The notes under the pieces are model-generated. The model worked only from the letters and a program-made list of their open reading frames with translations, ran no database searches and was not told the DNA's origin. The translations under genes were made by a program, and so were the position numbers. This document shows, in pieces, positions 3,374-43,432 of a stretch of 64,000 bases of DNA; positions within the stretch are counted from its first letter, which is position 1, and each line of letters begins with the position of its first letter. This DNA comes from Thermoanaerobaculia bacterium (lineage in GTDB: Bacteria; Acidobacteriota; Thermoanaerobaculia; Gp7-AA8), in the NCBI GenBank assembly GCA_035482045.1, contig DATHRD010000081.1:6238-70237 (forward strand), written 5' to 3'.

Positions 3374-4493
3374 GGCCATCGCCGCGGCGCTGATCCTGGC
3401 GATCGGCCTGACCACGGCGCACTCGCAGACGACGCGCAATCCGGACCTGACCCGCATTCGCGCGGAGATCGAACGGCTCCGCAAACGGCTGGACGACGTC
3501 CGCTCGCAGACCCGCAGCGCGGAGCACGACCTGGAAGAGGCCGACCTCGAGCTCGGAATCCGGACGAACGAGCTGCAACTCGCCATCGACATGCAATCGC
3601 AGCTCGAGCAGCAGCAACATGAGATCGAGGCGCAGATCTCCTCGATCGCCTCGGGCATGGCACGGGAGAAGGACTTCCTTCGCAAACGGCTGGCCACCCT
3701 CTACCGGCTCGGCGGGCTCAGCTACATTCGCCTGCTGTTGTCGATCGATGATCGCCGCGATCCCGTGCAGGCCGTGTCCATGCTCAGTTTCCTGGTCTCC
3801 CGCGATGCGCGCGCGGTTTCGCGTTTCCAGGCCGCGCGCGAGGAACTGCGCGCCCGCTCCGCCGAGCTCGCCGATCGCCAGCAGAAGCTGGCCGGAGTGC
3901 GGCTCATCGTCGAGCAGCGTCAGCGGTCGACCGCCGTGGCGCGCGCGAAGAAAGAGAGGATGCTGACATCGCTCCGGAGCGAGGGAAACCAGTCCGAGCA
4001 GAAGCTGGCCGAGCTGGAAGAGAAGGCCCGGCGGCTCGAGCACCTTCTCAGCGTGCTGTCGCGCCAGAACGGGGCGGCAGTGGCGGCGATCGATATCCGC
4101 ACCGTGCAGGGCGCGCTGGCATGGCCGGTTCAGGGAAAGATCATCGAGGGCTTCGGAAAGCAACGGAACGCAAAATTTTCGACTGTGACCTTCAATAATG
4201 GCCTCAAGATCGCGGCGGCGGCAGGAACCGAGGTACGCTCCGTGTTCGCGGGAACAGTTCTATTTTCGCAGTGGTTCAAGGGGTACGGTAATCTGGTGAT
4301 TCTCGATCACGGCAACCGCGTTTTCTCACTCTACGGCAACCTGAAGTCGCCTGCCGTCGCCATCGGCGACCGCATCAACGCTGGTCAGGCACTTGCAGGA
4401 GTCGGCGAGTCGGAGGATGCGCATTCCGGCTATCTCTACTTCGAGATTCGGCAGGACAACAAGCCTGAAGATCCGCAGAAATGGCTGCGGTAA
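3342..4493 (+). CDS. envC: M23 family murein hydrolase activator (EnvC-like), secreted
   Basis: Signal peptide, long coiled-coil region, C-terminal M23/LytM domain (GYGNLVILDHGN...SGYLYFEIR). Confidence 0.8.
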   Translation: MHCANLRRAPRAIAAALILAIGLTTAHSQTTRNPDLTRIRAEIERLRKRLDDVRSQTRSAEHDLEEADLELGIRTNELQLAIDMQSQLEQQQHEIEAQISSIASGMAREKDFLRKRLATLYRLGGLSYIRLLLSIDDRRDPVQAVSMLSFLVSRDARAVSRFQAAREELRARSAELADRQQKLAGVRLIVEQRQRSTAVARAKKERMLTSLRSEGNQSEQKLAELEEKARRLEHLLSVLSRQNGAAVAAIDIRTVQGALAWPVQGKIIEGFGKQRNAKFSTVTFNNGLKIAAAAGTEVRSVFAGTVLFSQWFKGYGNLVILDHGNRVFSLYGNLKSPAVAIGDRINAGQALAGVGESEDAHSGYLYFEIRQDNKPEDPQKWLR

Positions 4494-4506
4494 CGAGCAC
4501 GACGCT

Positions 4507-5715
4507 ATGAGCAAAAAGAAAATCGCCTTCCTCTCCGTTTCGGTAGCGCTACTTCTCTCCCTTCTCGGCGGCGCGCTGTTCGGACAGGCCACGCAGAAGA
4601 ACAACGTCTACCGCTACCTCAGCATCTTCACCGAGGTCCTGGACCTGGTGCGGAACAACTACGTCGATCAGGTACCGCCCGATCAGTTGATGGACGGGGC
4701 TTTCTCCGGCGTCACCGACGCCATCGACGAGTTCAGCTACTACGTCCCACCCACGCAGATGGCGGCCTATAAGACCTTCAGCGACGTCGAGGACAACGGA
4801 GTCGGACTCATCGTCACCAAGCGCTTCGGATACGCGTTCGTCATCGCGGCAGTCCCGGGCTCGCCCGCCGCGAAGGCCGGGATCGAGCGCGGCGACTTCA
4901 TCGAGAAGATCGACGGGCAGCCGACACCGAAACTGGCCGTCTGGCAGGTGCGCAATCTTCTTCGCTCCGCCAAACCGATGAAGCTCCAGGTCCTGCGCGG
5001 CGGCGAGACCAAGCGCGACGAATTCACCGTGCAGCAGGCCGCTTTTCATCCGCTTCCCATCACGACCGGGCAGTACGGCGGCGTGGCCTACGTGAAGATC
5101 CCCTACTTCGAGAAGGGAACGGCCGCGCAACTGGCCACCACGCTCGAGAGCATCCGCAAGGCCGGGAGCCGCAAGCTGATCATCGACCTCCGCGGCAATG
5201 CCGGCGGAGACGTCAATGAGGCCATTACCTCGGCGGATGAGCTGCTGACGAGCGGCATGATCACCGCACTGGCGGGCCGTAAAGTCGATGCCAAACAGTG
5301 GCAGGCCGACCGCAACACCGACTACGACGGCGATCTCGAGGTTCTCACCGACGGCTCGACCGCTTCCGGCGCCGAGATCTTCGCGGCCGCCATCCATGGC
5401 AACCAGCGTGGCAAAGTCGTCGGCGTGACGACGTACGGCAAGTCGATCGTGCAACGCTTCGTGCCGCTTCCCAGCGGCGGTGGCGTGTACATGACCGTCG
5501 CGCACTACACGACGCCGGACATGAAGGCGATCAAGGCCGGTGGTATCCGTCCCGACGTCGTCGTCGACCTCACCGCGCTTGCCCTCCGCGAGCCGGAGCC
5601 TCCCGCGGCCAAGGGCGCTCCGCGCGCTGCCGAGAAGCCCAAAGACGATCTGATCCTCCAGAAGGCGTTGCAGCTGTTCAACGAGCCGGCGGCGGCGGCG
5701 AAGAAGGCGGCGTAA
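4507..5715 (+). CDS. ctpA: Carboxyl-terminal processing protease (S41)
   Basis: MSKKK start with signal peptide; PDZ domain; S41 motifs ([25 protein letters not shown] in YGKS). Longer ORF from 4393 is an upstream extension overlapping envC. Confidence 0.85.
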
Positions 5716-10117: not shown

Positions 10118-10365
10118 GTCGCGGGGTTGCGGGTTGCGGGGTTACGGGTTACGGGGTCTCGCGGTGGAGAGGCTACCTGCTATGAAGGGAGGACCGCACA
10201 GACAAGAGTGTCTGTGCCCGCACAGACAAGAGTGTCTGTGCCACATCGAAGCCGCAGTGTGGCCTAGACACTCTGTCCGTTCCACAGCGGTTCCAGTGTG
10301 GCACAGACACTCTGTCCGTTCCACAGCGCGGTTCCAATGTGGCACAGACACTCTTGTCTGTGCTC
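10118..10365. repeat. Composite intergenic repeat region: tandem GGGTTGC heptads, 2 x 24-bp palindrome GCACAGACAAGAGTGTCTGTGC, and 3 x approx. 42-bp direct repeats
   Basis: Read directly from the sequence; lies between the peptidase gene's 3' end and the aminotransferase operon's 5' end. Confidence 0.8.
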
Positions 10366-10367
10366 CT

Positions 10368-11429
10368 CTACGACCGGCAGCTCGTCTGCGCCTCGGCCAT
10401 GGCCTTCTCCAGATCGCCGCGCGCGCTCGTGCGCGATTGCGGCACGGCCTCGATTGCGGCACGGAATGTCGTCAGCGCTTCATCGCACGCGCCTTTCGCT
10501 GCCAGCACGCGGGCCAGCGTATCAAGGACCAGGTACGAATCGGATCCGTGCTGGGCCACGGCTTTTCTCGCCAGTGACTCGGCCTCGTCGTAACGCTTCG
10601 ACTCGTAGAGAAGCCAGGCCAGATTGTTGAGGGCATCGCGGGACGTGGGATCGAGTGCGAGCGCTTTGCGGAAGGCATCCTCGGCCTCGGCGCGATGGCC
10701 GAGCAGCGTCTCCGCATTGCCGAGGTTTGTCCAGGTCAGAAGAGAGTCAGGATGATGGGAGAGGATCGCGCGATAGGCGTGTGCGGCATCGCCGTACTTG
10801 CCGGCATCCTCGAGGGCCACCGCGGAGCGTAGCGCGGCAGAATCATCGGCCGGATGGATCAGAATCGCCGCGTGGCCGCCGCCTGACCAGGCGTTTTCCA
10901 GCCGGCCGAACGTCGTCCAGCGTCCTTTGCCGTCGCCGAACTGCGTGCGCACGAGACCGGCCGCCGGATCGATTCCGTCCACGACGACGTAGTGGAAAAA
11001 GTCGTATTGGTGGCCGGGCCCATTCACTACCTGCAGCATCAGGATCACCGGCTGTCCCTGCCGCAACTCCCCTTCCACGATGGCCGGAGTCCCGGTGACG
11101 AGCTGCGCGTCGAAGCCCGCCTTGCGTGCCGCGATCAGCAGATCGATCGTGAGCACGCCACCGTGAGTCTTCGGCAGCGTCGCATCCCACGTCTGCATCG
11201 TCGTGGTGTCACCGTAGTGTTGCAGGACGGTCGAGAGCGATCCCGCGCCGCATGACTCGATGCCCCAGCGCTGCTCCGGAACGTTCGGGATTACCGTTGC
11301 AGTGGGGGAGGGGTGTTGGGTTCTGGGGGTGATGGTGATGCAGGAAGTGAGTGTCAGGAGGGCGCTGAGAAGAAGCTGAATGCCCGCGGGAGTCGGGAGT
11401 CGGGGGTCGGGGGTCGGAGCAGGAGCCAA
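10368..11429 (-). CDS. PA2778-like cysteine peptidase (C39-like) fused to TPR repeats, lipoprotein
   Basis: LLSALLTLTSC lipobox; papain/C39-like core (Cys in GIESCGAGS, His in GPGHQYDFFHYVVV); C-terminal TPRs. The ORF's first approx. 50 codons run through a hairpin repeat, so the TTG at 11429 is proposed as the start. Confidence 0.6.
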   Translation of the reverse strand: MAPAPTPDPRLPTPAGIQLLLSALLTLTSCITITPRTQHPSPTATVIPNVPEQRWGIESCGAGSLSTVLQHYGDTTTMQTWDATLPKTHGGVLTIDLLIAARKAGFDAQLVTGTPAIVEGELRQGQPVILMLQVVNGPGHQYDFFHYVVVDGIDPAAGLVRTQFGDGKGRWTTFGRLENAWSGGGHAAILIHPADDSAALRSAVALEDAGKYGDAAHAYRAILSHHPDSLLTWTNLGNAETLLGHRAEAEDAFRKALALDPTSRDALNNLAWLLYESKRYDEAESLARKAVAQHGSDSYLVLDTLARVLAAKGACDEALTTFRAAIEAVPQSRTSARGDLEKAMAEAQTSCRS

Positions 11430-11571
11430 GACGTTCTCTCCGACACCCGACACCCGACCCCCGACTCCCGAAGCACGAATGTTGACTGTTGACGGGAGCC
11501 GGGAGTGGGGAGTTGGAGCTGTAACGATCTCTCCGACCCCCGACCCCCGACCCCCGACTCCCGTCCTCAAC
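11387..11571. repeat. Two adjacent tandem-repeat hairpins, GGGAGTC/GGGGGTC arrays facing GACCCCC/GACTCCC arrays
   Basis: Inverted arrays seen directly; overlaps the 5' end of the peptidase ORF. Confidence 0.8.
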
Positions 11572-12051: not shown

Positions 12052-12240
12052 CAAGACGGGTGCCGGGTTGCGGTTGCGCGGTCGCGAGGTCGCGAGGTAG
12101 CGCGGTCGCGAGGTTGCAAGGTTGCAAGGTTGCTGAGTTGTCGGTTGTCAGGTTTGCCAACTGCCATAGCAACCCAGCAACCCAGCAACCTAGCAACCGC
12201 GAGACCGCGCAACCGCGAGACCCCGCAACCGCGAGACCGC
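12052..12240. repeat. Approx. 190-bp tandem-repeat hairpin (GTCGCGAG/GTTGCAAG arrays ... AGCAACC/GCGAGACC arrays) in a divergent promoter region
   Basis: Left arm and reverse-complement right arm separated by a 9-nt loop; sits between the divergent PA2779-like and rel genes. Confidence 0.8.
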
Positions 12241-12270
12241 GAGACCCCAACCACGATACGATCTTAGAGA

Positions 12271-14436
12271 ATGATCCGCTTCGAAGACATCCTTGACAAG
12301 ATCGAGAGCTACAAGCCCGACTTTGACGAGGAATTGCTCGACAGGGCCTTCGTTTTCTCGGCGCGCGAGCATCGCGGTCAGGTTCGCAGCTCGGGCGAGC
12401 CGTACCTCGTCCATCCCCTCAACGTCGCCTACATCCTGGCCGAGATGCGCCTCGACGAGACGTCCATCGCCGTCGGGCTGCTCCATGACGTCCTCGAAGA
12501 CACCCTGACCACGAAAGAGACGCTGCAGGAGGTCTTCGGCGACGACGTTGCCGAGCTGGTCGACGGCGTCACCAAGATCTCCCGTTACGCCTACGTCTCG
12601 AAGGAAGAGCAGCAGGCCGAGACCTTCCGCAAGATGCTGCTGGCCATGGTCAGCGACCTGCGCGTCGTCCTGGTCAAGCTCGCCGATCGGCTCCATAACA
12701 TGCGCACCCTCCAGTTCCTCCCCGAGGATCGGAGACTGGCCATCGCCACCGAGACGATGGAGATCTACGCGCCCATCGCCAACCGGCTCGGCATGGGGCG
12801 CATCAAGAGCGAGCTGGAAGACCTTTCCTTCCGCCACATGCACCCGCGCGAGTTTGAAGACCTCCAGCGCGCCGTCAACGAGAAGCTGGCCATATCCGGC
12901 GAGATCGTCGACCGCATCAAGGGGACCCTGACCGCCAAGCTGCGCGAAAACGATCTCAACGGAGACGTCTTCGGCCGCGTCAAATCGATGTACTCCATCT
13001 GGTCCAAGCTCCGCCGCCAGGAGATCGACGTCGGTCAGGTCTACGACTACCTGGCCTTTCGCATCGTCACCGCGAACATCAAAGACACGTACGCATGCCT
13101 CGGCATCATTCATCAGATGTGGCGTCCTGTCCCCGGCCGGATCAAGGACTACATCGCCATGCCCAAGCCCAACTTCTACCAGTCGCTGCACACCACGGTG
13201 GTGGCCGATAAGGGGCAGCCGTTCGAGGTGCAGATCCGGACGAGGGAGATGGACCTCATCGCCGAACAGGGCATCGCCGCGCATTGGAAGTACAAGGAAG
13301 GCCGCGTCGGCGCGCAGCCCGACGACACCAACTTCCTCTGGCTCCGGCAGCTCGTCGAATGGCAGCACGAGATCACCGACCCGCGCGACTTCATGCACTC
13401 GCTGAAGATCGATCTCTATCCCGACGAGGTCTATACCTTCACTCCCAAGGGAGACGTCTTCGCCTTTCCGCGCGGCGCCACCCCGCTCGATTTCGCCTAT
13501 CGCATCCACACCGACGTGGGCCACCACTGCGTCGGCGCCCGCGTGAACGGCAAGCTCATGCCGCTCCGGACCACGCTGAAGAACGGCGACATCATCGACG
13601 TGCTCACCGGCCCGAACCAGTCGCCCTCGCGCGAGTGGATCAACATGGTCGTGACCTCGCGGGCCCGCCATAAGATCCGGCATTGGCTCAACACGGAGCA
13701 GAAGCACCGCTCCATCGAGCTCGGCCGCAAGCTCATCGAGAAAGAAGCCAAGCGCTACCGCGTGCAATGGCGCAAGCTCGTCGCCGAGAACGCCCTCGAC
13801 GCCGTGCTCGCGGAGTATGCGCTGCCGAGGCTCGACGACCTTTATGCCGACGTCGGCTACGGCAAGATCTCATCGCGCGCCGTCGTCGAGCGCTTCGTCA
13901 AAGACGAGCAGGCGCCGGTCGACGAAGGCGTCCTCCAGCGCGCCGTCCGCAAGATCTTCCCCTTCACCGGCACCTCGCCCGCCATCAAGGTCAAAGGCTA
14001 CGACGACCTGATGACCTACCTCGCCAAATGCTGCAACCCCCTGCCGGGCGAGCCCATCACTGGATACATCTCCCGCGGCAAAGGAGTGGGAGTCCACAGC
14101 GCGAACTGTCCCAACGTGCGCAACCTGATGTTCAACGCCGACCGCCAGATCGCCGTCGAATGGGCCGATCAGAAACACGCCCAATTCCAGGTCGAGCTGG
14201 AGGTCGTGATGGAGGATCGCCAGGGCATCCTGGCCCGGGTCGTCAACACCGTCTCCAACATCAAGACCAACATCCGCCAGATGGACAGCCGGACCACCGA
14301 CGGAAAAGCCACCGCCGAGATGACGCTGGACATCGCCGACCTGAAGCACCTCGAGCGCGTCATCCGCTCCATCGCCGACATCGAAGGCGTCGTCCACGTG
14401 GAGCGGAAGTTCAATGTGCGCCACGCCACGGCGTGA
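12271..14436 (+). CDS. rel: Bifunctional (p)ppGpp synthetase/hydrolase
   Basis: HD domain (HPLNVAYILAEMRLD...LLHDVLEDT), RelA/SpoT synthetase domain, TGS and ACT domains. Confidence 0.9.
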   Translation: MIRFEDILDKIESYKPDFDEELLDRAFVFSAREHRGQVRSSGEPYLVHPLNVAYILAEMRLDETSIAVGLLHDVLEDTLTTKETLQEVFGDDVAELVDGVTKISRYAYVSKEEQQAETFRKMLLAMVSDLRVVLVKLADRLHNMRTLQFLPEDRRLAIATETMEIYAPIANRLGMGRIKSELEDLSFRHMHPREFEDLQRAVNEKLAISGEIVDRIKGTLTAKLRENDLNGDVFGRVKSMYSIWSKLRRQEIDVGQVYDYLAFRIVTANIKDTYACLGIIHQMWRPVPGRIKDYIAMPKPNFYQSLHTTVVADKGQPFEVQIRTREMDLIAEQGIAAHWKYKEGRVGAQPDDTNFLWLRQLVEWQHEITDPRDFMHSLKIDLYPDEVYTFTPKGDVFAFPRGATPLDFAYRIHTDVGHHCVGARVNGKLMPLRTTLKNGDIIDVLTGPNQSPSREWINMVVTSRARHKIRHWLNTEQKHRSIELGRKLIEKEAKRYRVQWRKLVAENALDAVLAEYALPRLDDLYADVGYGKISSRAVVERFVKDEQAPVDEGVLQRAVRKIFPFTGTSPAIKVKGYDDLMTYLAKCCNPLPGEPITGYISRGKGVGVHSANCPNVRNLMFNADRQIAVEWADQKHAQFQVELEVVMEDRQGILARVVNTVSNIKTNIRQMDSRTTDGKATAEMTLDIADLKHLERVIRSIADIEGVVHVERKFNVRHATA

Positions 14437-17513: not shown

Positions 17514-19502
17514 ATGGCCGATCACTCGCTGAAGCGCAGTTATTTTTTCTTCGTCCTCTTGCTTCTCACCTCGAGCGTTGCCTTCGCGGATTCTCCGTCG
17601 GGCCGCTATGAGAGCCGGATGGTGTGGGACACACCCATCCATCGAGCTGTGCTGTTCGGTGGCTCGACAGCCATCGACTCCGGGACGAAGATCGCGTACG
17701 AACGGAACGACACATGGGAATGGACCGGGTACCGGTGGCTTGAGGTATACCCCGTTCACAGCCCGTCAAACCGTGCCGCCCATGGGATGATCTTCGACTC
17801 CGTCCGCAACCGGCCGGTGGTTTTCGGCGGCCGTCAGAGCACAATCAATTCCAACGGCACGTCGAGCTTCGTCAATCTCAACGATACATGGAGCTTCGAC
17901 GGAACCGACTGGACGCAGATCCAGACGGCGGACTCCCCCTCCGTCCGAGAGCTGCCCGGCATGGTGTACGACTCCGCGCGCGATCGCATCGTGCTCTTCG
18001 GCGGCATCGTGCAGACCTACACCGGCCCCACCCTGAGAATACTCAACGAAACGCCACTCAAGGATACGTGGGAGTTCGACGGTACCGACTGGCATCAGAT
18101 CCAGGTCGACGGCCCCCTCGTGTACAAGCCGATCCTGGCCTACGACCCCATCCTCAAACAGACCATCATGATCGGCTACAACAACCCGACCGACGTCGTC
18201 ACGGTGATGTATGCCTACGATCCGGTCGGGGGAACCTGGAATCAACTCAAACCCGCCTTACTGCCGGCCTGCGCCAACGAAGGCGCGATGACATTTGACG
18301 GCGCGGACAGCAAGATCCTCTTCACGGGCGCGACCTGCCTCAGCTCGATCAACACGGAGGACACGTATGAGTGGGACGGGTCGAACTGGACGAAGATCAC
18401 CCTGACGTCGTTTGCCGGCCGCTACTACGGGGAGGCCCTGACCTACGACCCCGATCACCAGGTGGTCGTGCTCTTCGGCGGCGCCCAATTGGTCGGCCCT
18501 CTCCTGTCCGCCACGTACACCTACACCAACACGGTCTGGCAGGGCGCGGGCGATCTCGATTTCCCGGCGCCGCGCTCGCTCTTCATGTTCCTTTCGGATC
18601 CCGTTCACAACGTGATCTATCTTTATGGCGGTCTGAACGACGCCACGAGTTTCTTCGATTTCTGGATCTATCAGAACGGGCAGTTTCATCCGAATCTCGA
18701 CGGGACCCAGCCCTCCGCTTGCTCGTTGCCGCTCGGCGTGTTCGACACCGACCGCCAGAAGGTCGTGATGTTCTGTTCGGATAGCTCGACCTGGGAGTTC
18801 GATGGAGCGGCGTGGACCCAGTTCGACTCGTCGAAGACCGCACCTCCCGCGCATGAATGGGGCAGCCTGGCCTATGACCAGAGTCTGAAGAAGACAGTCT
18901 TCTTCGGCGGCTTCGATCCCAGCAACAACAGCTATCTGGATCAGACCTGGACGTACGACGGGACCAGTTGGACGCAGGTCACGAAGAACCCCCCAACATC
19001 GCGCTCTCATGCCTCGATCTGGTACGACCCGACCCTGAAAAAGACCTTGATCTACGGCGGGATCGGCCGGCTCACGTCCACCGATCGCCTGACGCGCTAC
19101 AGCGACATGTGGTCGTTTGACGGCACAGGCTGGACCGCGGTTGTCCCGGCGGCGACGCCGGGCATGCGTTACGGTGCACTGACAGCCATCGATCCGACGA
19201 CGAACCATGCCCTCATCTTCGGCGGGATCAGAGTCGATACCGACCCGACCAACAATCAGGTGCAGGTCTACGCGAACGACATGTGGGACTGGGACGGCAC
19301 GAAATGGACCCAGATCAACACGGCCGCCGTTCCGCCTCCCCGCGAGAACGCCGGCCTGGCCCTTGATCCTCTCCGCAACCAGCTCATCATGTTCGGCGGT
19401 TACAGCGGCTTCTACCTCTCCGACGTCTGGACCCTCGGCAACGGCAGTTGGTCACAGGTGTTTCAGGTCCTGAACCGGCGCCGGGCAGCAGCGGGGCACT
19501 GA
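17514..19502 (+). CDS. Secreted Kelch-repeat beta-propeller protein (approx. 13 repeats)
   Basis: Signal peptide; reiterated DTWEFDG(T/S)DWTQI and VLFGG motifs typical of Kelch blades. Confidence 0.8.
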
Positions 19503-19590
19503 TCGGCTCGGGAGTCGGGGGTCGGGAGTCGGGAGTCGGAACTGGATCGGCTCCGACCCCCGACCCCCGACCCCCGACCCCCGACCAACG
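19503..19590. repeat. GGGAGTC-family hairpin (four or five repeat units per arm)
   Basis: ggctcgggagtcgggggtcgggagtcgggagtcgga-actggat-cggctccgacccccgacccccgacccccgacccccgacc. Confidence 0.85.
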
Positions 19591-19614
19591 CTATGCTATT
19601 CTCGCGGGCCGATC

Positions 19615-20883
19615 GTGAGCTCCCTGAAAACTCGAGCGTTTCCGCTGGCCCTGGGGGCGGACCATGGTGGTTTTGAGCTGAAAGAGCAGCTCAAGACTCA
19701 TTTGCGCGAGAAGGGTCATACCGTTCACGATCTCGGTACCCACAGTAAGGACGCTGTCGACTATCCCAGGATCGCCAAAGCCGTCGCCGATCTCGTCGCA
19801 GCGGGGACCGTCCGCTTCGGAATCATGGTGGACGGAGCCGGAATCGGCTCGGCCATGACGGCCAACAAAGTGCCCGGCATCCTGGCTGCAGCCGCCTACA
19901 ATGAGATACTTGCGCGAAACAGCCGCGAGCATAATGATGCGAACGTTCTGACGCTCGGGGCCGGTCAGGTGGATGTCGACACGGCGAAACGGATCGTCGA
20001 GGTCTTTCTCGAAACGGAGTGCACCGCGGATCGGCACCGCGCGCGGGTGAAGATGATCCGCGAGATGGATAAAGGAGGGCGTGGGGTGAGCTCGAGGGGC
20101 AGCGACTTGTCAGCGGAGGACACTGCTCGGATCGCCGACCGGGTGCGGCAGCTCCTCCAGCAGGGCGGTGCCTCCACGCTGCCCGCCACGAACGTCCTTC
20201 CCCCGGAGAAGCTGGTCAAGCTGATCGACCACACGCTGCTCAAGCCCGAAGCAACCGCCGAGGACATCGAGAAACTCTGTCAGGAGGCTTCGCGGTTCGG
20301 CTTCTATTCCGTGTGCGTGAATCCGACATGGGTGGCCAAGGCGAAATCCCTCCTTCGCGGGACCTCAGTGAAGGTCTGCGCCGTGGTCGGCTTCCCGCTC
20401 GGCGCGCAGTCCCCGGAGATCAAGACCCTCGAGGCGCGCCGCGCTCTACGGGAAGGGGCGCAGGAAATCGACATGGTGATCAACATCGGCGCGCTGAAGA
20501 GCAAAGACGACCGTCTGGTGGCGCGCGACATCCGCGGAGTGGTCGAGGCCTGCGACGAAGCGCGTGCCGTCTCCAAAGTCATCCTGGAGACCGCGCTGCT
20601 CAACGACGAGGAAAAGGTCCGAGGATGCCAGCTTGCCATGAAGGCGCGTGCCGGCTTTGTGAAGACCTCGACCGGCTTCTCGAAGGCGGGCGCCACCGTC
20701 GAGGACATCGCCCTGATGGCGCGCACCGTGGCTCCCCGTAAGCTCGGCGTGAAAGCTTCCGGCGGAGTACGCACCTACGCCGACGTATTGAAGATGGTGG
20801 AAGCGGGCGCCACCCGCGTGGGCAGCTCCAATAGTGTCAAGATTCTGGAAGAGGCCACGCAATTGGCCTCGGGGAAGAGGTGA
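19615..20883 (+). CDS. Fused ribose-5-phosphate isomerase B (RpiB/LacAB family) and deoxyribose-phosphate aldolase (DeoC), with an amphipathic inter-domain helix; candidate microcompartment cargo enzyme
   Basis: N-terminal RpiB motifs ([31 protein letters not shown]); linker [19 protein letters not shown]; C-terminal DeoC motifs ([18 protein letters not shown], Schiff-base Lys in VKTSTGF). Confidence 0.85.
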
Positions 20884-20886
20884 ACG

Positions 20887-21510
20887 GTGGCTGAGCTTCG
20901 CTGCTATGTATTCATCGACAGCCTGCAGCCCCAGTTCGCTTCGTTCCTCGGAACGATCGCTCAGGGATTTCTTCCGGTGCCGGGCCAGGCCTCGCTGTTC
21001 GTCGAGGTTTCGCCGGGCATGGAGATCATGAGCGTGACCGACGTCGCCCTCAAGGCCACCGACGTCCGGCCGGGGATGATGATCATCGAGCGCCTCTACG
21101 GCATGCTCGAACTGCACTCAGATTCACAGGCCGATGTGCGCCAGGCCGGCCAGGCCATCCTCGATTCTCTGAATCTGAAGGAAACAGACCGCATCAAGCC
21201 CGAGATCACCTCCAGCCAGGTGATCCGCAACATCTCCGACTACCATACGCAGCTCATCAACAGGACCCGTCACGGTGACATGATCGTTCCGGGGCAGACC
21301 CTGTATGTGCTGGAGGTGGCGCCCGCGGGCTACGCGGCGATTGCGGCCAACGAGGCGGAGAAGGCGGCCAACATCAATGTCCTCGAGGTGCGGGCCTTTG
21401 GAAGCTTCGGGCGCGTTTACCTCGGCGGCGAAGAACGCGACATCGACGTCGGATACCGGGCTGCGGAGCAGGCCATTGCATCGATTGCCGGACGCGCCGG
21501 AAGGCCGTGA
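20887..21510 (+). CDS. BMC-T shell protein (tandem BMC domains)
   Basis: Two BMC-fold segments, each ending in the alpha/beta pattern ([13 protein letters not shown]... and [48 protein letters not shown]). Confidence 0.65.
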
Positions 21511-21700
21511 AAAGCAAACCAGAAACCAGAAAGCAGAAACGAGAAAACTAGAACCAGAAATAGAGAACTAGAAACCAGAGAGCAGAAATGAGCTAGAAGC
21601 AGAATCCAGAAGGCAGATCGCTGAACGGGGTTTTTCTCCGACTCCCGACTCCCGACTCCCGACCCCCGCCTTCTGGTTTCTAGTTTCCGATTTTGAGGAG
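21511..21700. repeat. Purine/A-rich degenerate tandem repeat (AGAAACCAGAA units) followed by a (GACTCCC)3 block and a reverse-complement arm, inside the microcompartment operon
   Basis: approx. 105 nt of AGAAAC-type repeats, then cggggttttt, (gactccc)3, and ccttctggtttctagtttc complementary to the upstream repeat; strong GAGGAGG RBS immediately after. Confidence 0.8.
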
Positions 21701-21705
21701 GACGC

Positions 21706-22017
21706 ATGACAGACGCACTAGGCATGATCGAAACGAGGTCTTTTCCGGCGGTAGTGGAAGCCGCCGACGCGGCGGTTAAGGCTGCGCGAGTGGATCTCGT
21801 CTCCTATGAGAAGACGGGTGGCGGATACACAACGATCGTCGTCCGCGGAGATGTTGCGGCGGTGAAAGCGGCGTGCGATGCGGCGCAGACCGCGGCAGGA
21901 CGGGTTGGCGACGTCGTGACCGTGCACGTGATCGCCCGGCCGCACGACCAGGTCGACGTCATCATGCCGCTCGGCCGAAAGCAGGCGGCGCCGCAGGGTC
22001 ACGAGAAGAAGAAGTAA
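21706..22017 (+). CDS. BMC-H shell protein (PduA/EutM/CcmK-like hexamer)
   Basis: ALGMIETRSFPAVVEAADAAVKAARVDLVSYEKTGGGYTTIVVRGDVAAVKAA is the canonical BMC domain; GAGGAGG RBS. Confidence 0.9.
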   Translation: MTDALGMIETRSFPAVVEAADAAVKAARVDLVSYEKTGGGYTTIVVRGDVAAVKAACDAAQTAAGRVGDVVTVHVIARPHDQVDVIMPLGRKQAAPQGHEKKK

Positions 22018-22032
22018 CAGGACCTACGTCCA

Positions 22033-22320
22033 ATGCAACTCGCGAGAGTCGTGGGAACCGTCGTGGCCACGCTTAAGGAGGAGAGCATGCAGGGGATCAA
22101 ACTCCTGGTCGTGCGTCCTCTCGATGAAGAAGGCCGCGAGAGCGGCAATGCGATCGTGTCGGCTGACGCGGTGGGAGCCGGTCCGGGCGAGGTCGTGCTG
22201 ATCGCGGCCGGAAGCTCGGCCCGGCAAACCGTGGTCACGGACAAGCGTCCCGTCGATTCGGTGGTCATGGCCATCGTCGACAGCTGGCATGTTGCCGATA
22301 CCGTGAAGTACAAGAAGTGA
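22033..22320 (+). CDS. BMC-P vertex protein (EutN/PduN/CcmL family), paralog 1
   Basis: MQLARVVGTVVAT...KLLVVRPLD...VVLIAAGSSAR, approx. 95 aa pentamer-type fold. Confidence 0.85.
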   Translation: MQLARVVGTVVATLKEESMQGIKLLVVRPLDEEGRESGNAIVSADAVGAGPGEVVLIAAGSSARQTVVTDKRPVDSVVMAIVDSWHVADTVKYKK

Positions 22321-22327
22321 GCCGCCG

Positions 22328-23782
22328 ATGACGCGCCTGACCGATCAGGAAATCGACGAGATCGCGCGGCGCATCGCCGCCGAGATGGGCGGCCGCGGCG
22401 CGGAACCTGCCCGGAGCGGAGCCGAAGGCCCTCCGCCCGTCCAGTCTCACGAGATGAGTCTCGGGGTTTTTGCCACGGTATCCGACGCCGTGCGCGCGGC
22501 GACCACCGCACAGAAAGAGTTCGTCGCGCTCAAGCTCGCCCATCGAGCCCGCATCCTCGAAGCGATGCGCCAGGCGATGCGCGAGAACGAATCGGTTCTC
22601 GCGAAAGCGGCGTTTGAAGAGACCGGCCTTGGACGCTACGAAGACAAGGTCATCAAGAATCGACTCGTCACGGAAAGGACCCCGGGCCTGGAAGATCTCG
22701 TTCCCGTGGCCACGACGGGGGACAACGGTCTCACGCTCGTCGAGCCCGCGCCGTTCGGTGTGATCGGCGCCATCACGCCCGTCACCAACCCCACATCCAC
22801 GATCATCTGCAACTCGATCGGGATGCTGGCCGCCGGCAACAGCGTCGTGTTCAACGTCCACCCGTACGCGAAGAACTGCTGCATGCAGACCATCGCCCTG
22901 CTCAACAAGGCCATCGCCGGCGCCGGCGGCCCTGCCAATGTCATCACCGGCGTGGCCAACCCGACTATCGAGTCGGCGCAGGAGCTGATGAAGCATCCAG
23001 GCGTGCGTTTGGTGGTCGTGACGGGTGGGGGAGAAGTCGTCAAGGTTGCCATGAGCAGTGGCAAGCGGGCCATCTGTGCCGGCCCTGGGAATCCGCCGGT
23101 GGTCGTGGACGAGACGGCGGACATCGACAGAGCGGCGCGCGACATCATCCTCGGCGCCTCCACCGACAACAACATCATCTGCACCGACGAGAAGGAAACC
23201 ATCGCCGTCTCGTCGATCGCCGACGCCCTCATCGCCTCGATGGGACGGCAAGGGGCGGTCGTTCTTCCGCGGGAGCGGCTCGCCGAGTTGGAGAAAGTCG
23301 TGTTCACGGAGATGAAGGGCCCGAGGCAGAAGGCCTGGATCGACAAGAACCTCGTCGGAAAGAACGCCTCCGCGATTCTGGCCAGGATGGGGATGAACGT
23401 TCCCGACGCGGTCCGCCTGGTCGTCGTCGAGGTCGATGAGAGCCATCCGTTGCTCTGGACCGAACAGATGATGCCGGTCATGCCCGTCGTTCGAGTCTCC
23501 GACGCGAACCGTGCCATCGATCTGGCGGTCCAGTTGGAAGGCGGGAACCGTCACACCGCGGTGATGCATTCGAAGGATCTCGACAATCTCAGCCGCATGG
23601 CCAAGGCGTGCGACTGCTCGATCTTCGTCAAGAACGGCCGCTCGCAGGCCGGCCTCGGGCTCGATGGCGAGGGCTATTGCTCCTTCACGATCGCCAGCCC
23701 CACCGGCGACGGCATGACCGGACCGCGATCATTCTCACGCTGGCGCCGCTGCGTGCTCGTCGGTCACTTCAGGATCACGTGA
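22328..23782 (+). CDS. CoA-acylating aldehyde dehydrogenase (PduP/EutE-like) with an N-terminal encapsulation peptide
   Basis: N-terminal amphipathic helix TDQEIDEIARRIAAEM plus Gly/Pro linker; ALDH core with catalytic Cys (NNIICTDE); C-terminal FTIASPTGDG motif. Confidence 0.9.
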   Translation: MTRLTDQEIDEIARRIAAEMGGRGAEPARSGAEGPPPVQSHEMSLGVFATVSDAVRAATTAQKEFVALKLAHRARILEAMRQAMRENESVLAKAAFEETGLGRYEDKVIKNRLVTERTPGLEDLVPVATTGDNGLTLVEPAPFGVIGAITPVTNPTSTIICNSIGMLAAGNSVVFNVHPYAKNCCMQTIALLNKAIAGAGGPANVITGVANPTIESAQELMKHPGVRLVVVTGGGEVVKVAMSSGKRAICAGPGNPPVVVDETADIDRAARDIILGASTDNNIICTDEKETIAVSSIADALIASMGRQGAVVLPRERLAELEKVVFTEMKGPRQKAWIDKNLVGKNASAILARMGMNVPDAVRLVVVEVDESHPLLWTEQMMPVMPVVRVSDANRAIDLAVQLEGGNRHTAVMHSKDLDNLSRMAKACDCSIFVKNGRSQAGLGLDGEGYCSFTIASPTGDGMTGPRSFSRWRRCVLVGHFRIT

Positions 23783-24396
23783 TGAGGAAGACGTCCGCTT
23801 TCGCCGTCCTCGATTTCTCCGACATTCCGTCGGGCGTCTGCGCGGTCGATTCCATTCTAAAGAAAGCGCCCATCGCATTCGTGCGGGCCGGAACGGTGAC
23901 GCACGGCCGTTATCTGGTCGTGTTCGGCGGTTCGACCGCCGCCACCGCCGAGTCGCTGGCCGAGGCGCTGGCGACGAGCGGCAGCGCGATCATCGATCAC
24001 AGCTTCCTGCCGGATGCGCATCCGGTACTCTTCGACGCGGCGTTCGGGGCGCGCCGGAAATCGACGGGCTCGCTTCTCATCATCGAGACCGAGACCGCCT
24101 CCTCGATCGTTCGCGCCGTGGAAGCGGCTCTCAAAGGAACGCCGGTCGAGCTGATCGAGATGCGCCTTGCCGACGCGGGGTTGGCGGGCAAGGGAATCGC
24201 GCTGATGGCCGGCTCGCTCCACGACGTCGAAGCGGCAGCGGCCCTGGCGGCCGAAGGAACCCGAGACGCTCCATCGCCCCGAGGCTTCTCGCATCGGCTC
24301 ATCGCAGCGCCGCACGAGATCATGGAGCGCGAAATCGCAGCGGTGATGCGATTCGACATCGCCCCTCTCCTCGATCTGGATGGGGAGGCCGGCTGA
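23782..24396 (+). CDS. BMC-T shell protein (tandem BMC domains), second paralog
   Basis: ATG overlaps the AldDH stop by 1 nt; two BMC-like segments (FAVLDFSDIPSGVCAVDSILKKAP... and LLIIETETASSIVRAVEAALKGTPVELIEMRLADAGLAGKGIALMAGSLHDVEAAAALA). Confidence 0.65.
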   Translation: MRKTSAFAVLDFSDIPSGVCAVDSILKKAPIAFVRAGTVTHGRYLVVFGGSTAATAESLAEALATSGSAIIDHSFLPDAHPVLFDAAFGARRKSTGSLLIIETETASSIVRAVEAALKGTPVELIEMRLADAGLAGKGIALMAGSLHDVEAAAALAAEGTRDAPSPRGFSHRLIAAPHEIMEREIAAVMRFDIAPLLDLDGEAG

Positions 24397-24665
24397 TGCT
24401 TCTGGGCCGCGTCATCGGTCAGGTCGTACCGTGCGTGGTGACGCCCGGACTCGAGGGCGTGCCGATGCTCATCGTGCAGCCGCTGGACAAGATGCTGAAG
24501 CCGAAAGGAAAGGCCATCGTCGCCGCCGATGCCACGCGCATGGCCGGCCCGGGCGAGCTGGTCTCGTACGAAGGCGGGCGTGAGGCGGCCATGTCTCTCG
24601 ATCCGGCGTTCGTACCGATCGATCACGCCATCCTGGCGATCGTCGACGGGGTCAACATCTCGTGA
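24396..24665 (+). CDS. BMC-P vertex protein, paralog 2
   Basis: MLLGRVIGQVVPCVV...PMLIVQPLD; 1-nt overlap with the upstream stop. Confidence 0.85.
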   Translation: MLLGRVIGQVVPCVVTPGLEGVPMLIVQPLDKMLKPKGKAIVAADATRMAGPGELVSYEGGREAAMSLDPAFVPIDHAILAIVDGVNIS

Positions 24666-24931
24666 TCCTCGGACGCGTCATCGGCGAGATCCACGGGACG
24701 ATCAAGCACCCGTTCTACGAAGGCAAGAAGCTCCTGGTGATCGAGAAGACCTCACCCTCGGGCGACCCGACCGGCGACTACCTCATCGCCGCCGACTCGG
24801 TCGGCGCCGGCGCCCACGAGCGCGTTCTCGTACTCGACGAAGGCAATGGCGCGCGGCAGGTGTTCGACTCGAAGGACGGCCCAGTCCGCTCCGTCGTTGT
24901 GGGGATCATCGACGATGTTGTGAGTGGCTGA
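24662..24931 (+). CDS. BMC-P vertex protein, paralog 3
   Basis: MILGRVIGEIHGTIK...KLLVIEK; GTGA start/stop overlap. Confidence 0.85.
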   Translation: MILGRVIGEIHGTIKHPFYEGKKLLVIEKTSPSGDPTGDYLIAADSVGAGAHERVLVLDEGNGARQVFDSKDGPVRSVVVGIIDDVVSG

Positions 24932-24934
24932 GGT

Positions 24935-25060
24935 GTCGCGGCCGTGCAGGTCACGCGGTCGCGCAGTCACGCGGTCTCGCAGTTCCCAGGTCCCGTGCTG
25001 TCCGGTACGTTCCCCGCCGAGAGACCCCGAGACCGCGCGACCGCGCGACCGCCTAACCGC
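24935..25060. repeat. Tandem-repeat hairpin (GTCACGCG/GTCGCGCA arrays ... GAGACC/GCGCGACC arrays) after the microcompartment operon
   Basis: gtcgcggccgtgcaggtcacgcggtcgcgcagtcacgcggtctcgcag ... gagaccccgagaccgcgcgaccgcgcgaccgc. Confidence 0.75.
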
Positions 25061-25171
25061 GCTGCTGAGCTTTCCAAAAACATAGAGACGCGACGCAGCC
25101 GCGGACGTAAGTTGCTGTCCGTCGCTGATCCGAAACTCGCGGCGACCCAGTGGGCGCACTCTAGCGCGCCA

Positions 25172-25206
25172 GCCCGTTGCGACGGCCGAGCAACGGGCAT
25201 TTTTTT
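25172..25206 (+). terminator. Intrinsic terminator: 9-bp GC stem (GCCCGTTGC/GCAACGGGC) followed by T7
   Basis: gcccgttgcgacggccgagcaacgggcattttttta; the only canonical U-tract terminator noticed in the window; sits at the convergent junction closing the microcompartment operon. Confidence 0.65.
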
Positions 25207-25576
25207 AGGCTGTGCTTCGGATCGGCTGCGCGATGAGTGCCAGATCGACGGTCGAGACGAGGTCGTCGTCGATCTCCTCGGGTTTGATGACCCGTACCGA
25301 CGGGAGCGCGCGCCTGACCGTCTCCACAGCCGCCGCGATGACGATGATGGCGACGTTTTGTCCGTGCAGCGCCTCGATCCTGCGAACCAGGGCAATGGCG
25401 GTGAGCACCGGCAGATCGATGACAACGCCCTCGACGTTCGGCGCTCCGGAGATCCGTTCCATGGTGGCGTCGTCGACGATCTTGCTGACCATGTACCCGG
25501 CCGTGCCAAGCAGGGTGGCAGCGCGAGACGCGCCCGGGTCAGCACGCAGGAGCAGATGCGGCGTGAGTTGCGTCAT
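25205..25576 (-). CDS. Receiver-like (CheY-fold) single-domain protein, degenerate
   Basis: VVIDLPVLTAI and VRVIKP resemble receiver D and K positions, but the N-terminal acidic pair is missing. Confidence 0.45.
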   Translation of the reverse strand: MTQLTPHLLLRADPGASRAATLLGTAGYMVSKIVDDATMERISGAPNVEGVVIDLPVLTAIALVRRIEALHGQNVAIIVIAAAVETVRRALPSVRVIKPEEIDDDLVSTVDLALIAQPIRSTA

Positions 25577-31757: not shown

Positions 31758-33026
31758 ATGCTTTCCCGCGAATATCTCCGCGAACATACGGACGCCTATC
31801 GCACCGCGCTGAAGAACCGCGGCGCGAACGTTGATCTCGAGCGCTTTCTCGAACTCGACATCGAGCGCCGCCGCACCATCGCTCAAGTCGAGGCGCTCAA
31901 AGCGCAACGCAACGCGGCGTCGCAGGAGATCGCGAGCCTCAAGAAGAACAAGCAGGACGCCGGCGCGCAGATCGAGGCGATGAAGGGCGTCGGCGACGAG
32001 ATCAGGAAGCTCGATGAGCAACTCGCCGTGATCGAGGCGGATCTGCGCAATGTCGAGCTCTACTTCCCCAACGTCCCGCACGAATCCGTTCCCGTGGGTC
32101 CGGACGAGACGCACAACCGCGTCGAGCGCGCCTGGGGTGAGAAACCCGCGTTTTCGTTCACGCCGAAGGCGCACTGGGACATCGGCGAGGCGCTCGGCAT
32201 CCTCGATTTCGACCGCGCCTCCAAGATCACCGGCGCCCGGTTCTCTATCTTGACCGGTGCCGGGGCGAAGCTGAATCGGGCGCTGATCAACTTCATGCTC
32301 GACATCCACGAGCAGCAGAACTACGTGGAGGTCGTCCCGCCGTTCATGGTCAACGCCGACTCGCTTCGGGGCACGGGACAACTGCCGAAGTTCGAGGAAG
32401 ACCTCTTCAAGCTGACGGATCGCGACTACTACCTGATTCCCACGGCCGAGGTGCCTGTCACGAATCTTCATCGCGACGAGATTCTCGATGGGGCCAAACT
32501 GCCAATCTCGTACACCGCCTACTCGCCGTGCTTCCGCAGCGAGGCCGGGTCGTACGGCAAAGATACGCGGGGTCTCATCCGACAGCATCAGTTCGAGAAA
32601 GTGGAGATCGTGAAATTCACGACGCCCGAGACATCGTGGGAGGAGCACGAGAAGCTCACCGCTGATGCCGAGGCCGTGCTGCGCGCCCTCGGTCTGCACT
32701 ACCGCGTCATGACTCTCTGTACGGGCGACATGGGCTTCACTGCGGCGAAGACCTACGACCTGGAAGTGTGGCTGCCGGGGCAGCAGACCTATCGCGAGAT
32801 CAGCTCCTGCTCCAACTTCGTCGATTTCCAGGCTCGGCGCGCCAATATCCGCTATCGCTCCACGGAGAAGAAGACGGGCTACGTTCACACCCTCAACGGC
32901 TCCGGCCTGGCGATCGGCCGCACGCTCGTGGCCATCCTCGAGAACTACCAGAATGAGGATGGGTCGGTGCGGGTGCCGGAGGCGTTGCGGGGGTACATGA
33001 AGGGTGTGGAGGTCATTAGCTCTTAG
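31758..33026 (+). CDS. serS: Seryl-tRNA synthetase
   Basis: N-terminal coiled-coil arm, class II motifs ([41 protein letters not shown]). Confidence 0.9.
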
Positions 33027-33128
33027 CTCTTAGCTGTTAGCTCTTGGCTCGGAGGGGAAAGGGCAAAGGCGCACCAAGAGCGCACCAAGAGCGCACCAAG
33101 AGCTGAGAGCTAAGAGCTAACAGCGGCT
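33027..33128. repeat. Tandem-repeat hairpin (AGCTCTT/AGCTGTT array ... GCGCACCAAGA x3 ... AGCTAAGAGCT)
   Basis: tagctcttagctcttagctgttagctcttggctc ... gcgcaccaagagcgcaccaagagcgcaccaagagctgagagctaagagctaacagc. Confidence 0.8.
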
Positions 33129-35659: not shown

Positions 35660-35782
35660 AAGGCTCAATGTTGAATGTTGAATGTTCAGTGTTGAATGTT
35701 GAATGGACGCAGCAGTAGGTCTGAGTCATTCAACACTCAACATTCAACATTCAACATTCGACTCTCAACGTTCGACTCTCCC
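35660..35782. repeat. TTGAATG-family hairpin
   Basis: ctcaatgttgaatgttgaatgttcagtgttgaatgttgaatg ... cattcaacactcaacattcaacattcaacattcgactctcaacgttcg. Confidence 0.85.
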
Positions 35783-37314: not shown

Positions 37315-37400
37315 GCGGGGGTCGGGAGTCGGGAGTCGGGTGTCGTAGAGGAGATGGCCGCGGGGCCATCGATCTCTTCTCCGGCTCCCCACTCCCGACC
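37315..37400. repeat. GGGAGTC-family hairpin
   Basis: gggggtcgggagtcgggagtcgggtgtcg ... ggctccccactcccgacccccacac. Confidence 0.8.
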
Positions 37401-37548
37401 CCCACACGGTGCAGAACCCCGAATTCTGGAAGGCGTACGGCTGCAAGGACGGCCAGCCGATGGTGCGCGACGCGTCAAAACGCTGTTCGATCTGGTGACG
37501 GGAGGCCATGAATTGCCTCGGGGGAGTCCGTGAATTGACTCCGTGAGT

Positions 37549-37752
37549 TCATGAATTGCCTCCGGGAAGCAATCAATTGCCCGGGAAGCAATCAATTGCC
37601 TCCGGGAAGCAATCAATTGCCTCCGGGAAGCAATCAATTGCCTCCGGGAAGCAATCAATTGCCTCCGGGAGCCAATCAATTGCCTCCGGGAAGCAATCAA
37701 TTGCCTCCGGGAACCAATCAATTGCCTCCGGGAAGCAATCAATTGCCTCCCG
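37549..37752. repeat. Tandem array of approx. 9.5 copies of a 21-bp unit CAATCAATTGCCTCCGGGAAG (each contains the near-palindrome GCAATCAATTGC), flanked by direct repeats CATGAATTGACTCC
   Basis: Units are contiguous and nearly identical (one lacks 2 nt; variants gccaatc and gaaccaatc). Both strands give spurious ORFs (NQLPPGS-type repeats). Confidence 0.9.
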
Positions 37753-37839
37753 GGGGTCCATGAATTGACTCCACGAGGGTGTTTTCAAATCCGACGATTG
37801 CGAAACTGCGGTTGGCGAGTCCGTTAGCCGCCTTGGCGT

Positions 37840-43307: not shown

Positions 43308-43432
43308 GATGTTTGAATGTTCAATGTTGAATGTTCAATGTTGGATGTTGAATGACCGAGTCCGAGTGATTCAACTCCGAACATCAACACTGAACATTCA
43401 ACATTCCGCATTCAACATTCAACGTTCAGTAT
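43308..43432. repeat. TTGAATG-family hairpin
   Basis: gtttgaatgttcaatgttgaatgttcaatgttggatgttgaatg ... cattcaacattccgcattcaacattcaacgttcag. Confidence 0.85.

Follow-up and report, generated by a model that had tools for sequence, protein, structure and literature searches.

The Microcompartment Operon and Its Repeat-Filled Spacer

The 64-kb stretch of Thermoanaerobaculia DNA analysed here (hereafter the window; 63.8% G+C overall) carries a bacterial microcompartment (BMC) operon in which a long, repeat-filled spacer separates the gene of a BMC-T-like shell protein from that of the major shell protein, BMC-H. An earlier interpretation made from the letters of the window alone (the sequence-only reading), which overestimated the G+C content at 67%, took this spacer for an internal element that uncouples BMC-H from the upstream genes and boosts its expression. 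Judging from its gene content (a pentose-phosphate isomerase, a DERA-type aldolase, and an aldehyde dehydrogenase), the locus is presumably a sugar-phosphate-utilising microcompartment, and those homologues of its BMC-T protein that have a named source are labelled Thermoanaerobaculia (Acidobacteriota). The genes of the operon otherwise follow each other closely (junctions of -4 to +15 nt); this spacer, read directly from the sequence, fills the 195 nt (21511-21705) that separate the TGA stop codon of the BMC-T-like gene from the BMC-H ATG (Table 1).

From 5' to 3', the spacer consists of approximately 15 degenerate AGAAACC-type heptamers (the left arm), GGGGTTTTT, (CCGACTC)x4.4, a 26-nt complementary arm (the right arm), and a strong Shine-Dalgarno (SD) sequence. 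Tandem Repeats Finder (TRF) reported a period of 7 with 10.4 copies and the consensus AAACCAG at 21516-21589, and approximately 15 degenerate units were obtained when 21513-21617 was cut into heptamers. With 53% A and 77% purine, the left arm is the most A-rich and purine-rich 104-nt stretch in the window. The right arm is complementary to several left-arm registers (21516-21534, 21523-21545, 21558-21579, and 21601-21614), for example to 21558-21579 (22 nt, 86%); since it is much the shorter of the two, most of the left arm must stay unpaired. It is followed on its 3' side by ATTTT. The array of CCGACTC units in the loop, an orphan with regard to the two arms, belongs to the commonest unit family of the window (CGGGAGT/ACTCCCG) and is an insertion relative to the related loci L002 and L087-L090 (loci are given here by L numbers). 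The predicted pairing of GAGGAGG with the anti-SD sequence (-12.2 kcal/mol) is the strongest in the operon, and that of BMC-P2 comes next (-11.5 kcal/mol). Thus, the anatomy given by the sequence-only reading was largely accurate, including the purine-rich degenerate repeat, the G-run followed by T5, the downstream segment complementary to the repeat, and the strongest ribosome-binding site (RBS) of the locus; the C-rich array is also present, in 4.4 copies and not in three.

The spacer recurs in the independent assemblies L001 and L003 and partly in L004, and is therefore no assembly artefact. The contigs of L004 and L086 end inside the AGAA array, which indicates that the repeat breaks short-read assemblies and that copy numbers in metagenome-assembled genomes need caution.

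Repeat Hairpins Throughout the Window

Arrays with units of 6-9 nt are greatly over-represented and intergenic in this Thermoanaerobaculia genome: 36 were detected in the window (TRF, merged), whereas 30 dinucleotide shuffles averaged 1.7, and nearly all of them fall in the non-coding 17% of the window. Their usual architecture, (unit)n - short loop - (reverse-complement unit)n, is also found at approximately 16 other intergenic sites beside unrelated genes, and more than half of the intergenic gaps longer than 100 nt hold such an element. Typically, the distance from one end of the element to the upstream gene's stop codon is 0-16 nt; three elements are located between divergent genes, so that the class is not limited to 3' ends. 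The unit sequences are site-specific, yet several families recur (CGGGAGT-like, AATGTTG-like, and GGTTGCGA-like). Folding of 16 elements gave z-scores of -2.4 to -11.9, all but one being -4 or lower. A 171-nt tandem duplication of a nested composite hairpin shows that the elements can nest and be duplicated as blocks.

The operon is flanked by members of this class on both sides. The copy between BMC-T and BMC-H is atypical, having approximately 15 units on the left versus approximately 3.5 on the right and an orphan array of the commonest family in its loop.

Table 1. Genes of the microcompartment operon, parts of the spacer, related repeat hairpins, and quadruplex motifs of the GGGAGTC type in the window.
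Feature	Position	Strand	Remarks
RpiB-DeoC fusion gene	19615-20883	+	microcompartment operon; start codon GTG
BMC-T-like shell gene	20887-21510	+	Pfam BMC match; PF27545 CsoS1D_N plus BMC domain; TGA stop directly abuts the repeat
BMC-H shell gene	21706-22017	+	starts at ATG 21706
BMC-P gene	22033-22320	+	microcompartment operon
Aldehyde dehydrogenase gene	22328-23782	+	microcompartment operon
Second tandem-BMC protein gene	23782-24396	+	microcompartment operon
Two further BMC-P genes	up to 24931	+	last of the operon; final stop at 24931
Spacer, left arm	21511-21617	+	~15 degenerate heptamers (CAGAAAC, CAGAAAG, CTAGAAC ... CAGAAGG), AGAAACC/AGAAAGC type
Spacer, loop remnant TCGCTGAACGGGGTTTTTCT	21618-21637	+	GGGG 21627-21630, TTTTT 21631-21635; counterpart in L002 is GGATTTT
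Spacer, orphan (CCGACTC)x4.4 array	21638-21668	+	TRF period 7, 4.4 copies
Spacer, right arm GCCTTCTGGTTTCTAGTTTCCGATTT	21668-21693	+	26 nt, pyrimidine-rich, ~3.5 units; complementary to several left-arm registers
Spacer, Shine-Dalgarno GAGGAGG	21695-21701	+	4 nt 5' of ATG 21706
(TCGGGAG)x4.6 - loop - (CCGACCC)x4.9 hairpin	19508-19586		between Kelch-repeat gene stop (19502) and putative operon promoter; z -5.7 to -8.4
Octamer/16-mer array hairpin	24937-25052		directly 3' of last operon gene (stop 24931); z -5.2
Two adjacent CGGGAGT/CCGACCC hairpins	11387-11563		TRF and folding
GGTTGCGA/AGCAACCC octamer-array hairpin	12072-12246		between divergent genes; z -11.9
TTAGCTC/AAGAGCT hairpin	33016-33124		overlaps stop codon; z -7.1
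AATGTTG/CATTCAA hairpin	35667-35780		z -7.9
CGGGAGT hairpin, nested palindrome	37316-37400		z -7.7
GGTTGCTA/CAACCCAG hairpin	40578-40691		z -10.6
TTGAATG/AACATTC hairpin	43313-43428		z -5.9
Two nested composite hairpins (outer GGGGAGT/CCACACC, inner AATGTTG/CATTCAA)	45957-46291		171-nt tandem duplication, 83% identity (45928-46262)
Orphan CGGGAGT array	53030-53060		divergent intergenic region
AGTGGATC/ATCCACTA hairpin	59430-59514		z -5.2
AAGGATG/CCTTCAG hairpin	61489-61591		between two same-strand genes; z -5.6
GTTGTCGG/AACCGAC hairpin	62470-62569		z -4.1
GGGAGTC-type quadruplex motifs	11388-11413, 19510-19533, 37317-37340, 53031-53056	+
GGGAGTC-type quadruplex motifs	11446-11469, 11537-11562, 19557-19582, 21644-21667	-

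Variation of the Spacer among Related Loci

The gene order BMC-T to BMC-H is conserved in 80 genomes from several phyla. The spacer between the two genes is not conserved; its length ranges from 14 to approximately 400 nt (median 65), and 13 of the 67 spacers of at least 40 nt were significantly structured. In a neighbour-joining tree built from the BMC-T gene, ten loci group in a single clade, which reaches down to 84% DNA identity in this gene, and an AGAA-type array directly follows the TGA in all ten of them. Their spacers measure 58 (L085, with six left-arm units and no right arm), >80 (L086, before the contig end), 88 (L008, a symmetric hairpin), 128 (L087), 140 (L088), 152 (L002), 164 (L090), 167 (L089), 188, and 195 nt. 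Among the loci with an identical BMC-T protein, L003 has exactly one CCGACTC unit fewer in an otherwise identical spacer, and L002 has a version of the type (AGAAGGC)n ... (GCCTTCT)4 without the CCGACTC array. Comparison of the same intergenic position in homologous loci, which the sequence-only reading had proposed, thus found a similar spacer throughout one clade, versus only 14-23 nt at the junction in the sister clade (L006, L007, L014, and L015); L016 is likewise short (14-23 nt). The contrast between the two clades points to a single gain (or a single loss) of the element, which has persisted and is dispensable. GAGGAGG is kept in L006 and L007, with leaders of 18-23 nt and no repeat, and the strong RBS is therefore independent of the element.

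The two arms co-vary. Left arms of the AGAAACC type paired with their own GGTTTCT arms reach -52 to -54 kcal/mol, and with GCCTTCT arms only -19 to -24 kcal/mol; AGAAGGC left arms prefer GCCTTCT right arms, with which they reach -38 to -55 kcal/mol. The copy changes by whole units between samples, its arms switch unit type together, and the sister clade has the operon but not the element.

The same junction holds unrelated heptamer hairpins in L018, L022, L071 (Planctomycetota), and L070/L074 (Calditrichia). When the BMC-T/BMC-H junction was considered as a unique hotspot across 87 loci, it had the longest median (67 nt before BMC-H, compared with 6.5 nt before BMC-T and 42 nt after BMC-H), but the junctions before BMC-T and after BMC-H were also long in repeat-rich genomes, and this idea was rejected.

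The site 5' of the operon is also occupied by differing hairpins in differing strains. Ahead of RpiB-DeoC, each genome has a different heptamer unit (L017, 3273-3357; L007, 8650-8713; L015, ~4490-4590; L037, 8830-8906), and the unit in L017, AAACCAG/TTCTGGT, is the left-arm unit of the window spacer at another location. Judged from these contigs, the position persists and the sequence turns over.

Predicted Folding and Quadruplex Motifs

The folding of the segment, which the sequence-only reading had suggested examining, gave a mixed picture: pairing arms are present, and the whole spacer folds no better than shuffled sequences (z +0.46 and -0.7 in two computations). An inverted partner can be recognised (22 nt, 86%), but the z-score of -0.7 differs from those of the orthologues L002 and L008 (about -6), and the stem of the window is the weakest of the clade (-31.7 kcal/mol). 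The idea of a strong hairpin therefore holds for the siblings and orthologues and appears not to hold for this copy. If selection acted at the RNA level, G-U pairs should give the sense strand the better fold. The spacer copy folds far better as antisense than as sense, and the sense strand was favoured over the antisense in 9 of 22 elements (p = 0.32), which indicates no bias. The predicted probability that the SD is unpaired in the window is 0.47 whether or not the upstream arm is included. Sequestration of the SD by the right arm and its relief by the left arm were not predicted in the window, L089, or L090, and therefore do not represent a conserved property.

On the minus (template) strand, the stretch 21644-21667, GGGGGTCGGGAGTCGGGAGTCGGG, matches a G3N4 x4 quadruplex motif, which arises from the orphan CCGACTC array only and not from the AGAA array. 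Eight GGGAGTC-type arrays of the window fit the canonical G-quadruplex motif, and together with two G-rich heptamer/octamer arrays (10123-10148 and 46264-46285), 10 of the 17 quadruplex motifs in the window are array-derived.

Searches for Known Regulatory or Coding Features

Rfam gave no match in the whole window at the gathering threshold and, with an E-value threshold at 19300-25300, nothing in 21511-21705, the only matches in the searched region being chance microRNA-like ones on neighbouring hairpins. A promoter scan restricted to the sigma-70 consensus (-35/-10 with 16-18-nt spacing) found no promoter-like site in 19300-25400. A terminator scan found no terminator-like site in 21511-21705, and the same scan missed the terminator at 25172-25206 on account of its 9-nt loop; the stem of the spacer is long and A/T-rich, with only ATTTT after it, and does not resemble an intrinsic terminator. 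A translated repeat was ruled out by the 7-nt period with 7-nt insertions and deletions, and the overlapping open reading frames (ORFs) at 21417-21725 (-) and 21305-21571 (+) had no Pfam match. With regard to repetitive extragenic palindromic (REP) sequences and bacterial interspersed mosaic elements (BIMEs), the units and loops vary from site to site, and the AGAA unit is unique to this one. Inspection by eye for signs of a miniature inverted-repeat transposable element (MITE) revealed no shared flanks or target-site duplication, and the arms are tandem arrays. The spacer does not belong with the REPs/BIMEs, intrinsic terminators, or curated RNA families, and it is unlikely to be a MITE. What the spacer does display are the features of a heptanucleotide simple-sequence repeat, i.e., head-to-tail 7-nt units (10.4 and 4.4 copies), arrays more numerous in the window than composition predicts, an intergenic location, and length polymorphism by whole units; in addition, its heptamer array is predicted to pair with a downstream complementary region 5' of BMC-H, as in the hmw1A system discussed below.

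Probably a Lopsided Member of an Intergenic Repeat Class

Based on these results, the spacer is likely to be a heptanucleotide simple-sequence-repeat hairpin, a lopsided local member of a genome-wide intergenic class and not a dedicated booster of BMC-H. The arrays would grow and shrink by slipped-strand mispairing of 7-nt units, as suggested by the one-unit polymorphism and the series of spacer lengths, and the arms may stay complementary through weak selection for pairing, intrastrand template switching, or both. The CCGACTC array could be a later addition to the loop, specific to the lineage of the window. In the messenger RNA (mRNA), the right arm would pair with one left-arm register in an imperfect stem of approximately 22-26 bp ending 1 nt before the SD, and the remaining 60-80 nt of the A-rich left arm would be single-stranded. 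The effect on expression is probably small and incidental; any effect would be that of an intercistronic stem-loop that acts as a double-stranded RNA target or as a barrier to exonucleases and becomes stronger or weaker as the repeat number drifts. Since BMC-H is not translationally coupled and is provided with a strong RBS of its own, there is room for extra sequence at the junction, which may explain why the element is carried there. With regard to the sequence-only reading, the hairpin may have a processing role, but an operon-specific device that uncouples and boosts BMC-H is unsupported in view of the similar elements at other intergenic sites, the short junctions of the sister clade and L016, the lack of a right arm in L085, the unchanged SD accessibility, and the empty promoter, terminator, and Rfam searches.

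Several observations weigh against reading the spacer as just another member of this class. The AGAA unit is absent elsewhere in the window, and the element has been retained over a clade in which the BMC-T DNA differs by up to 16%. Its polarity is constant (purine-rich arm first), the left arm is always the longer, and the unit switches are compensatory. Such retention, polarity, and paired switching represent more order than a purely neutral repeat needs and argue for some constraint. Furthermore, in L002, L008, L087, and L088, which have CCUUCU right arms, release of an otherwise sequestered SD by the left arm is predicted (unpaired probability rising from 0.04-0.33 to 0.53-0.80). The reading also supposes that the spacer would be co-transcribed in a polycistronic BMC mRNA and would not be processed.

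The strongest alternative, considered rather unlikely, is a selected post-transcriptional rheostat, in which a hairpin 5' of the BMC-H RBS would be cleaved by RNase III, splitting the enzyme/BMC-T part from the shell mRNA, and the repeat number would tune BMC-H. Its precedent is hmw1A of Haemophilus influenzae, where a transcribed (ATCTTTC)n 5' untranslated region (5'-UTR), with one arm of approximately 10 repeats and a short complementary region, forms a long hairpin that is processed by RNase III, and where expression scales inversely with repeat number (PMC12721329). The heptamer array with its shorter complementary arm, the stem predicted to end 1 nt before the SD, the polymorphism in unit number, the retention across the clade, the constant polarity, and the co-varying arms are all consistent with such a role. 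However, the sister clade and L085 manage without the hairpin, the stem of the window is the weakest of its clade, the whole spacer does not surpass shuffled sequences in folding, there is no preference for the sense strand, and elements of the same kind are ubiquitous in the genome and occur even in divergent, promoter-only regions. It appears quite improbable that inverted heptamer-array hairpins in Acidobacteriota, Planctomycetota, and Calditrichota would constitute a distinct class with conserved structure and fluid sequence, keeping their place over long divergence as the units turn over and both arms change in step, and maintained by a dedicated mechanism or selection, and that the BMC-T/BMC-H copy would be a tunable, RNase III-processed rheostat of shell:enzyme dosage.

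The unpaired A-rich tract might instead serve as a translational standby site or enhancer that recruits the 30S subunit or protein S1 and raises BMC-H translation independently of the upstream genes. This would fit the most A-rich stretch of the window, a left arm so consistently longer in the clade that part of it must be single-stranded, and the SD-like AGAAGG units of relatives, but it is very improbable given that the tract lies 80-190 nt from the SD with the C-rich array and the stem intervening, that the AGAAACC unit of the window and L089/L090 is not SD-like, that L006 and L007 have GAGGAGG with a leader of only 18-23 nt, and that the tract leaves the predicted accessibility of the SD in the window unchanged. 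An internal attenuator, also put forward by the sequence-only reading, or a roadblock would cut read-through into the shell genes by means of the hairpin and its U-rich tail or of the template-strand quadruplex motif (21644-21667). ATTTT does follow the right arm, the minus strand carries the G3N4 x4 motif, and similar GGGAATC arrays fold into quadruplexes in vitro (PMC4692102). Nevertheless, this is extremely unlikely: the terminator scan was empty in the spacer, whose stem is A/U-rich and imperfect; the terminator that the genome places after the operon has a canonical GC stem and T7; the quadruplex-capable array occurs among relatives in L001 and L003 only; and seven downstream genes, including the signature aldehyde dehydrogenase, would be starved. 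A recently inserted MITE- or REP-like mobile element is hardly to be expected either. The CCGACTC unit family is found at at least six other sites, the array here is lineage-specific and, like several of the others, preceded by TCTC/TTCTCCGAC; however, the arms are tandem arrays and not terminal inverted repeats, the loops and flanks differ among sites with no evident target-site duplication, the main AGAA array has been inherited vertically and is confined to this site, and the units vary by site, unlike REPs, which are conserved 20-40-bp palindromes (PMC3733652, PMC2817692).

Relationship to Known Heptanucleotide Repeats

According to summaries of Mrazek et al. 2007 in later papers (PMC4679880, PMC4692102), no other long simple-sequence repeats are as abundant in many bacteria as those with 7-nt units, for which an origin by polymerase slippage has been suggested (see also PMC4060949). 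In Xanthomonas, 89-93% of the GGGAATC arrays are intergenic and near the upstream ORF, 70-75 convergent pairs are able to form stem-loops, and the position of the arrays is constant between species and their length variable (PMC4692102). In Nostoc/Anabaena, the unit is GGGGAYT, and one Anabaena array lies inside the pec operon, separating pecE from pecF (Rehm et al. 2015, PMC4692102). Like these heptamers, the elements of the window are intergenic arrays of 7-nt tandem units near an upstream stop, often in inverted pairs, with conserved position and variable length and sequence; the commonest unit of the window, GGGAGTC, is one base from the GGGAATC of Xanthomonas, and both fit a quadruplex motif. 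Unlike Xanthomonas, many unrelated units coexist in one genome here (AGAAACC, AATGTTG, GGTTGCGA, AGTGGATC, AAGGATG, TTAGCTC, and others) with none dominant, nearly every array in the window has an inverted partner, nested composites occur, the AGAA unit is not G-rich, and the host is an uncultured member of Thermoanaerobaculia.

Similarities to other systems are also partial. In hmw1A, as in the BMC spacer, a heptamer array lies 5' of a coding sequence, many repeats face a shorter complement, and the repeat number varies between isolates. However, hmw1A has a monocistronic 5'-UTR with its own promoter and an experimentally shown function, whereas the BMC spacer is intercistronic, has the reversed polarity (purine-rich arm first), and is missing from a sister clade. 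REP/BIME elements of enterobacteria and pseudomonads are likewise abundant, intergenic, and palindromic, are often located just 3' of stop codons and between operon genes, and can stabilise mRNA; they differ in being 20-40-bp palindromes of one or a few conserved families that are mobilised by REP-associated tyrosine transposases (RAYTs), whereas the elements of the window are inverted tandem arrays with site-specific units and slippage by whole units. The short tandemly repeated repetitive (STRR) heptamers of heterocystous cyanobacteria and the TAACTGA repeats of Beggiatoaceae resemble the arrays of the window as intergenic heptanucleotide tandems, often directly 5' of start codons, and a role in translation has been proposed, not shown, for them (PMC4679880). 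Direct arrays of a small number of fixed units predominate among these (a Beggiatoaceae genome has 169 direct sets and only one indirect repeat; PMC4679880), in contrast to the inverted pairs that are the rule in the window.

A literature search for such arrays in Acidobacteria/Thermoanaerobaculia found no description, and only the papers on Xanthomonas/Nostoc, Beggiatoaceae, and Haemophilus were retrieved. The window adds to the known heptamer repeats the many units per genome, the near-universal inverted pairing, the nested composites, and a new host lineage. The bacterial excess of heptanucleotide repeats, itself poorly understood, is extreme in this lineage, in which orthologous sites hold different units by strain and which offers a good system for asking whether the arrays are mutational by-products or functional stem-loops. 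With regard to the operon, its only large non-coding insert is a hypervariable repeat directly 5' of the major shell gene, and if the element affects expression, strains would differ in shell:enzyme stoichiometry through repeat slippage. The interest lies mainly in the genome-wide phenomenon and in the testable idea that slippage tunes shell-protein dosage. For annotation, a striking local repeat should not be taken for an operon-specific regulator until the rest of the genome has been checked.

Flanking Signals and Other Repeats

Upstream of the operon, a putative extended -10 element (TGCTATTCT) is located at 19594-19602, 12 nt 5' of the RpiB-DeoC GTG, and TGCTATCCT or TGCTATTCT is kept at the equivalent place in L005, L006, L014, L015, L017, L088, and L089. 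The place expected for the -35 element of the operon is taken by the heptamer hairpin, and the mRNA leader would be almost nil. Downstream, a canonical intrinsic terminator at 25172-25206 (GCCCGTTGC - 9-nt loop - GCAACGGGC, then A and T7) lies approximately 240 nt past the last operon gene, beyond the octamer-array hairpin, and overlaps the stop codon of a convergent gene. Its presence shows that ordinary terminators, separate from the repeat hairpins, are in use in this genome.

Other types of repeats were also observed. A distinct REP-like repeat at 10194-10354 comprises the perfect palindrome GGCACAGACAAGAGTGTCTGTGCC and variants in approximately 5 copies, with TRF periods of 24 and 39. In L088 and L089, this palindrome borders the region 5' of the BMC operon, a position at which a CGGGAGT hairpin stands in the window. 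At 37499-37772, a 21-nt unit (AATTGCCTCCGGGAAGCAATC; 21 = 3 x 7), partly self-complementary, is tandemly repeated in approximately 13 copies, and a comparable 21-nt array (GGCAGTTAACAGCCTTTCGGA, approximately 14 copies) is found in L088 at ~14000-14330, just 3' of its BMC operon. The main case of arrays within apparent coding sequence is at 47707-47929, where C-rich arrays (CGTAGCTCCCACCCC x3; CCCACCC/ACCCCCC, periods 7, 14, and 21) lie inside the predicted ORF 47504-48274 and may encode a proline-rich linker.

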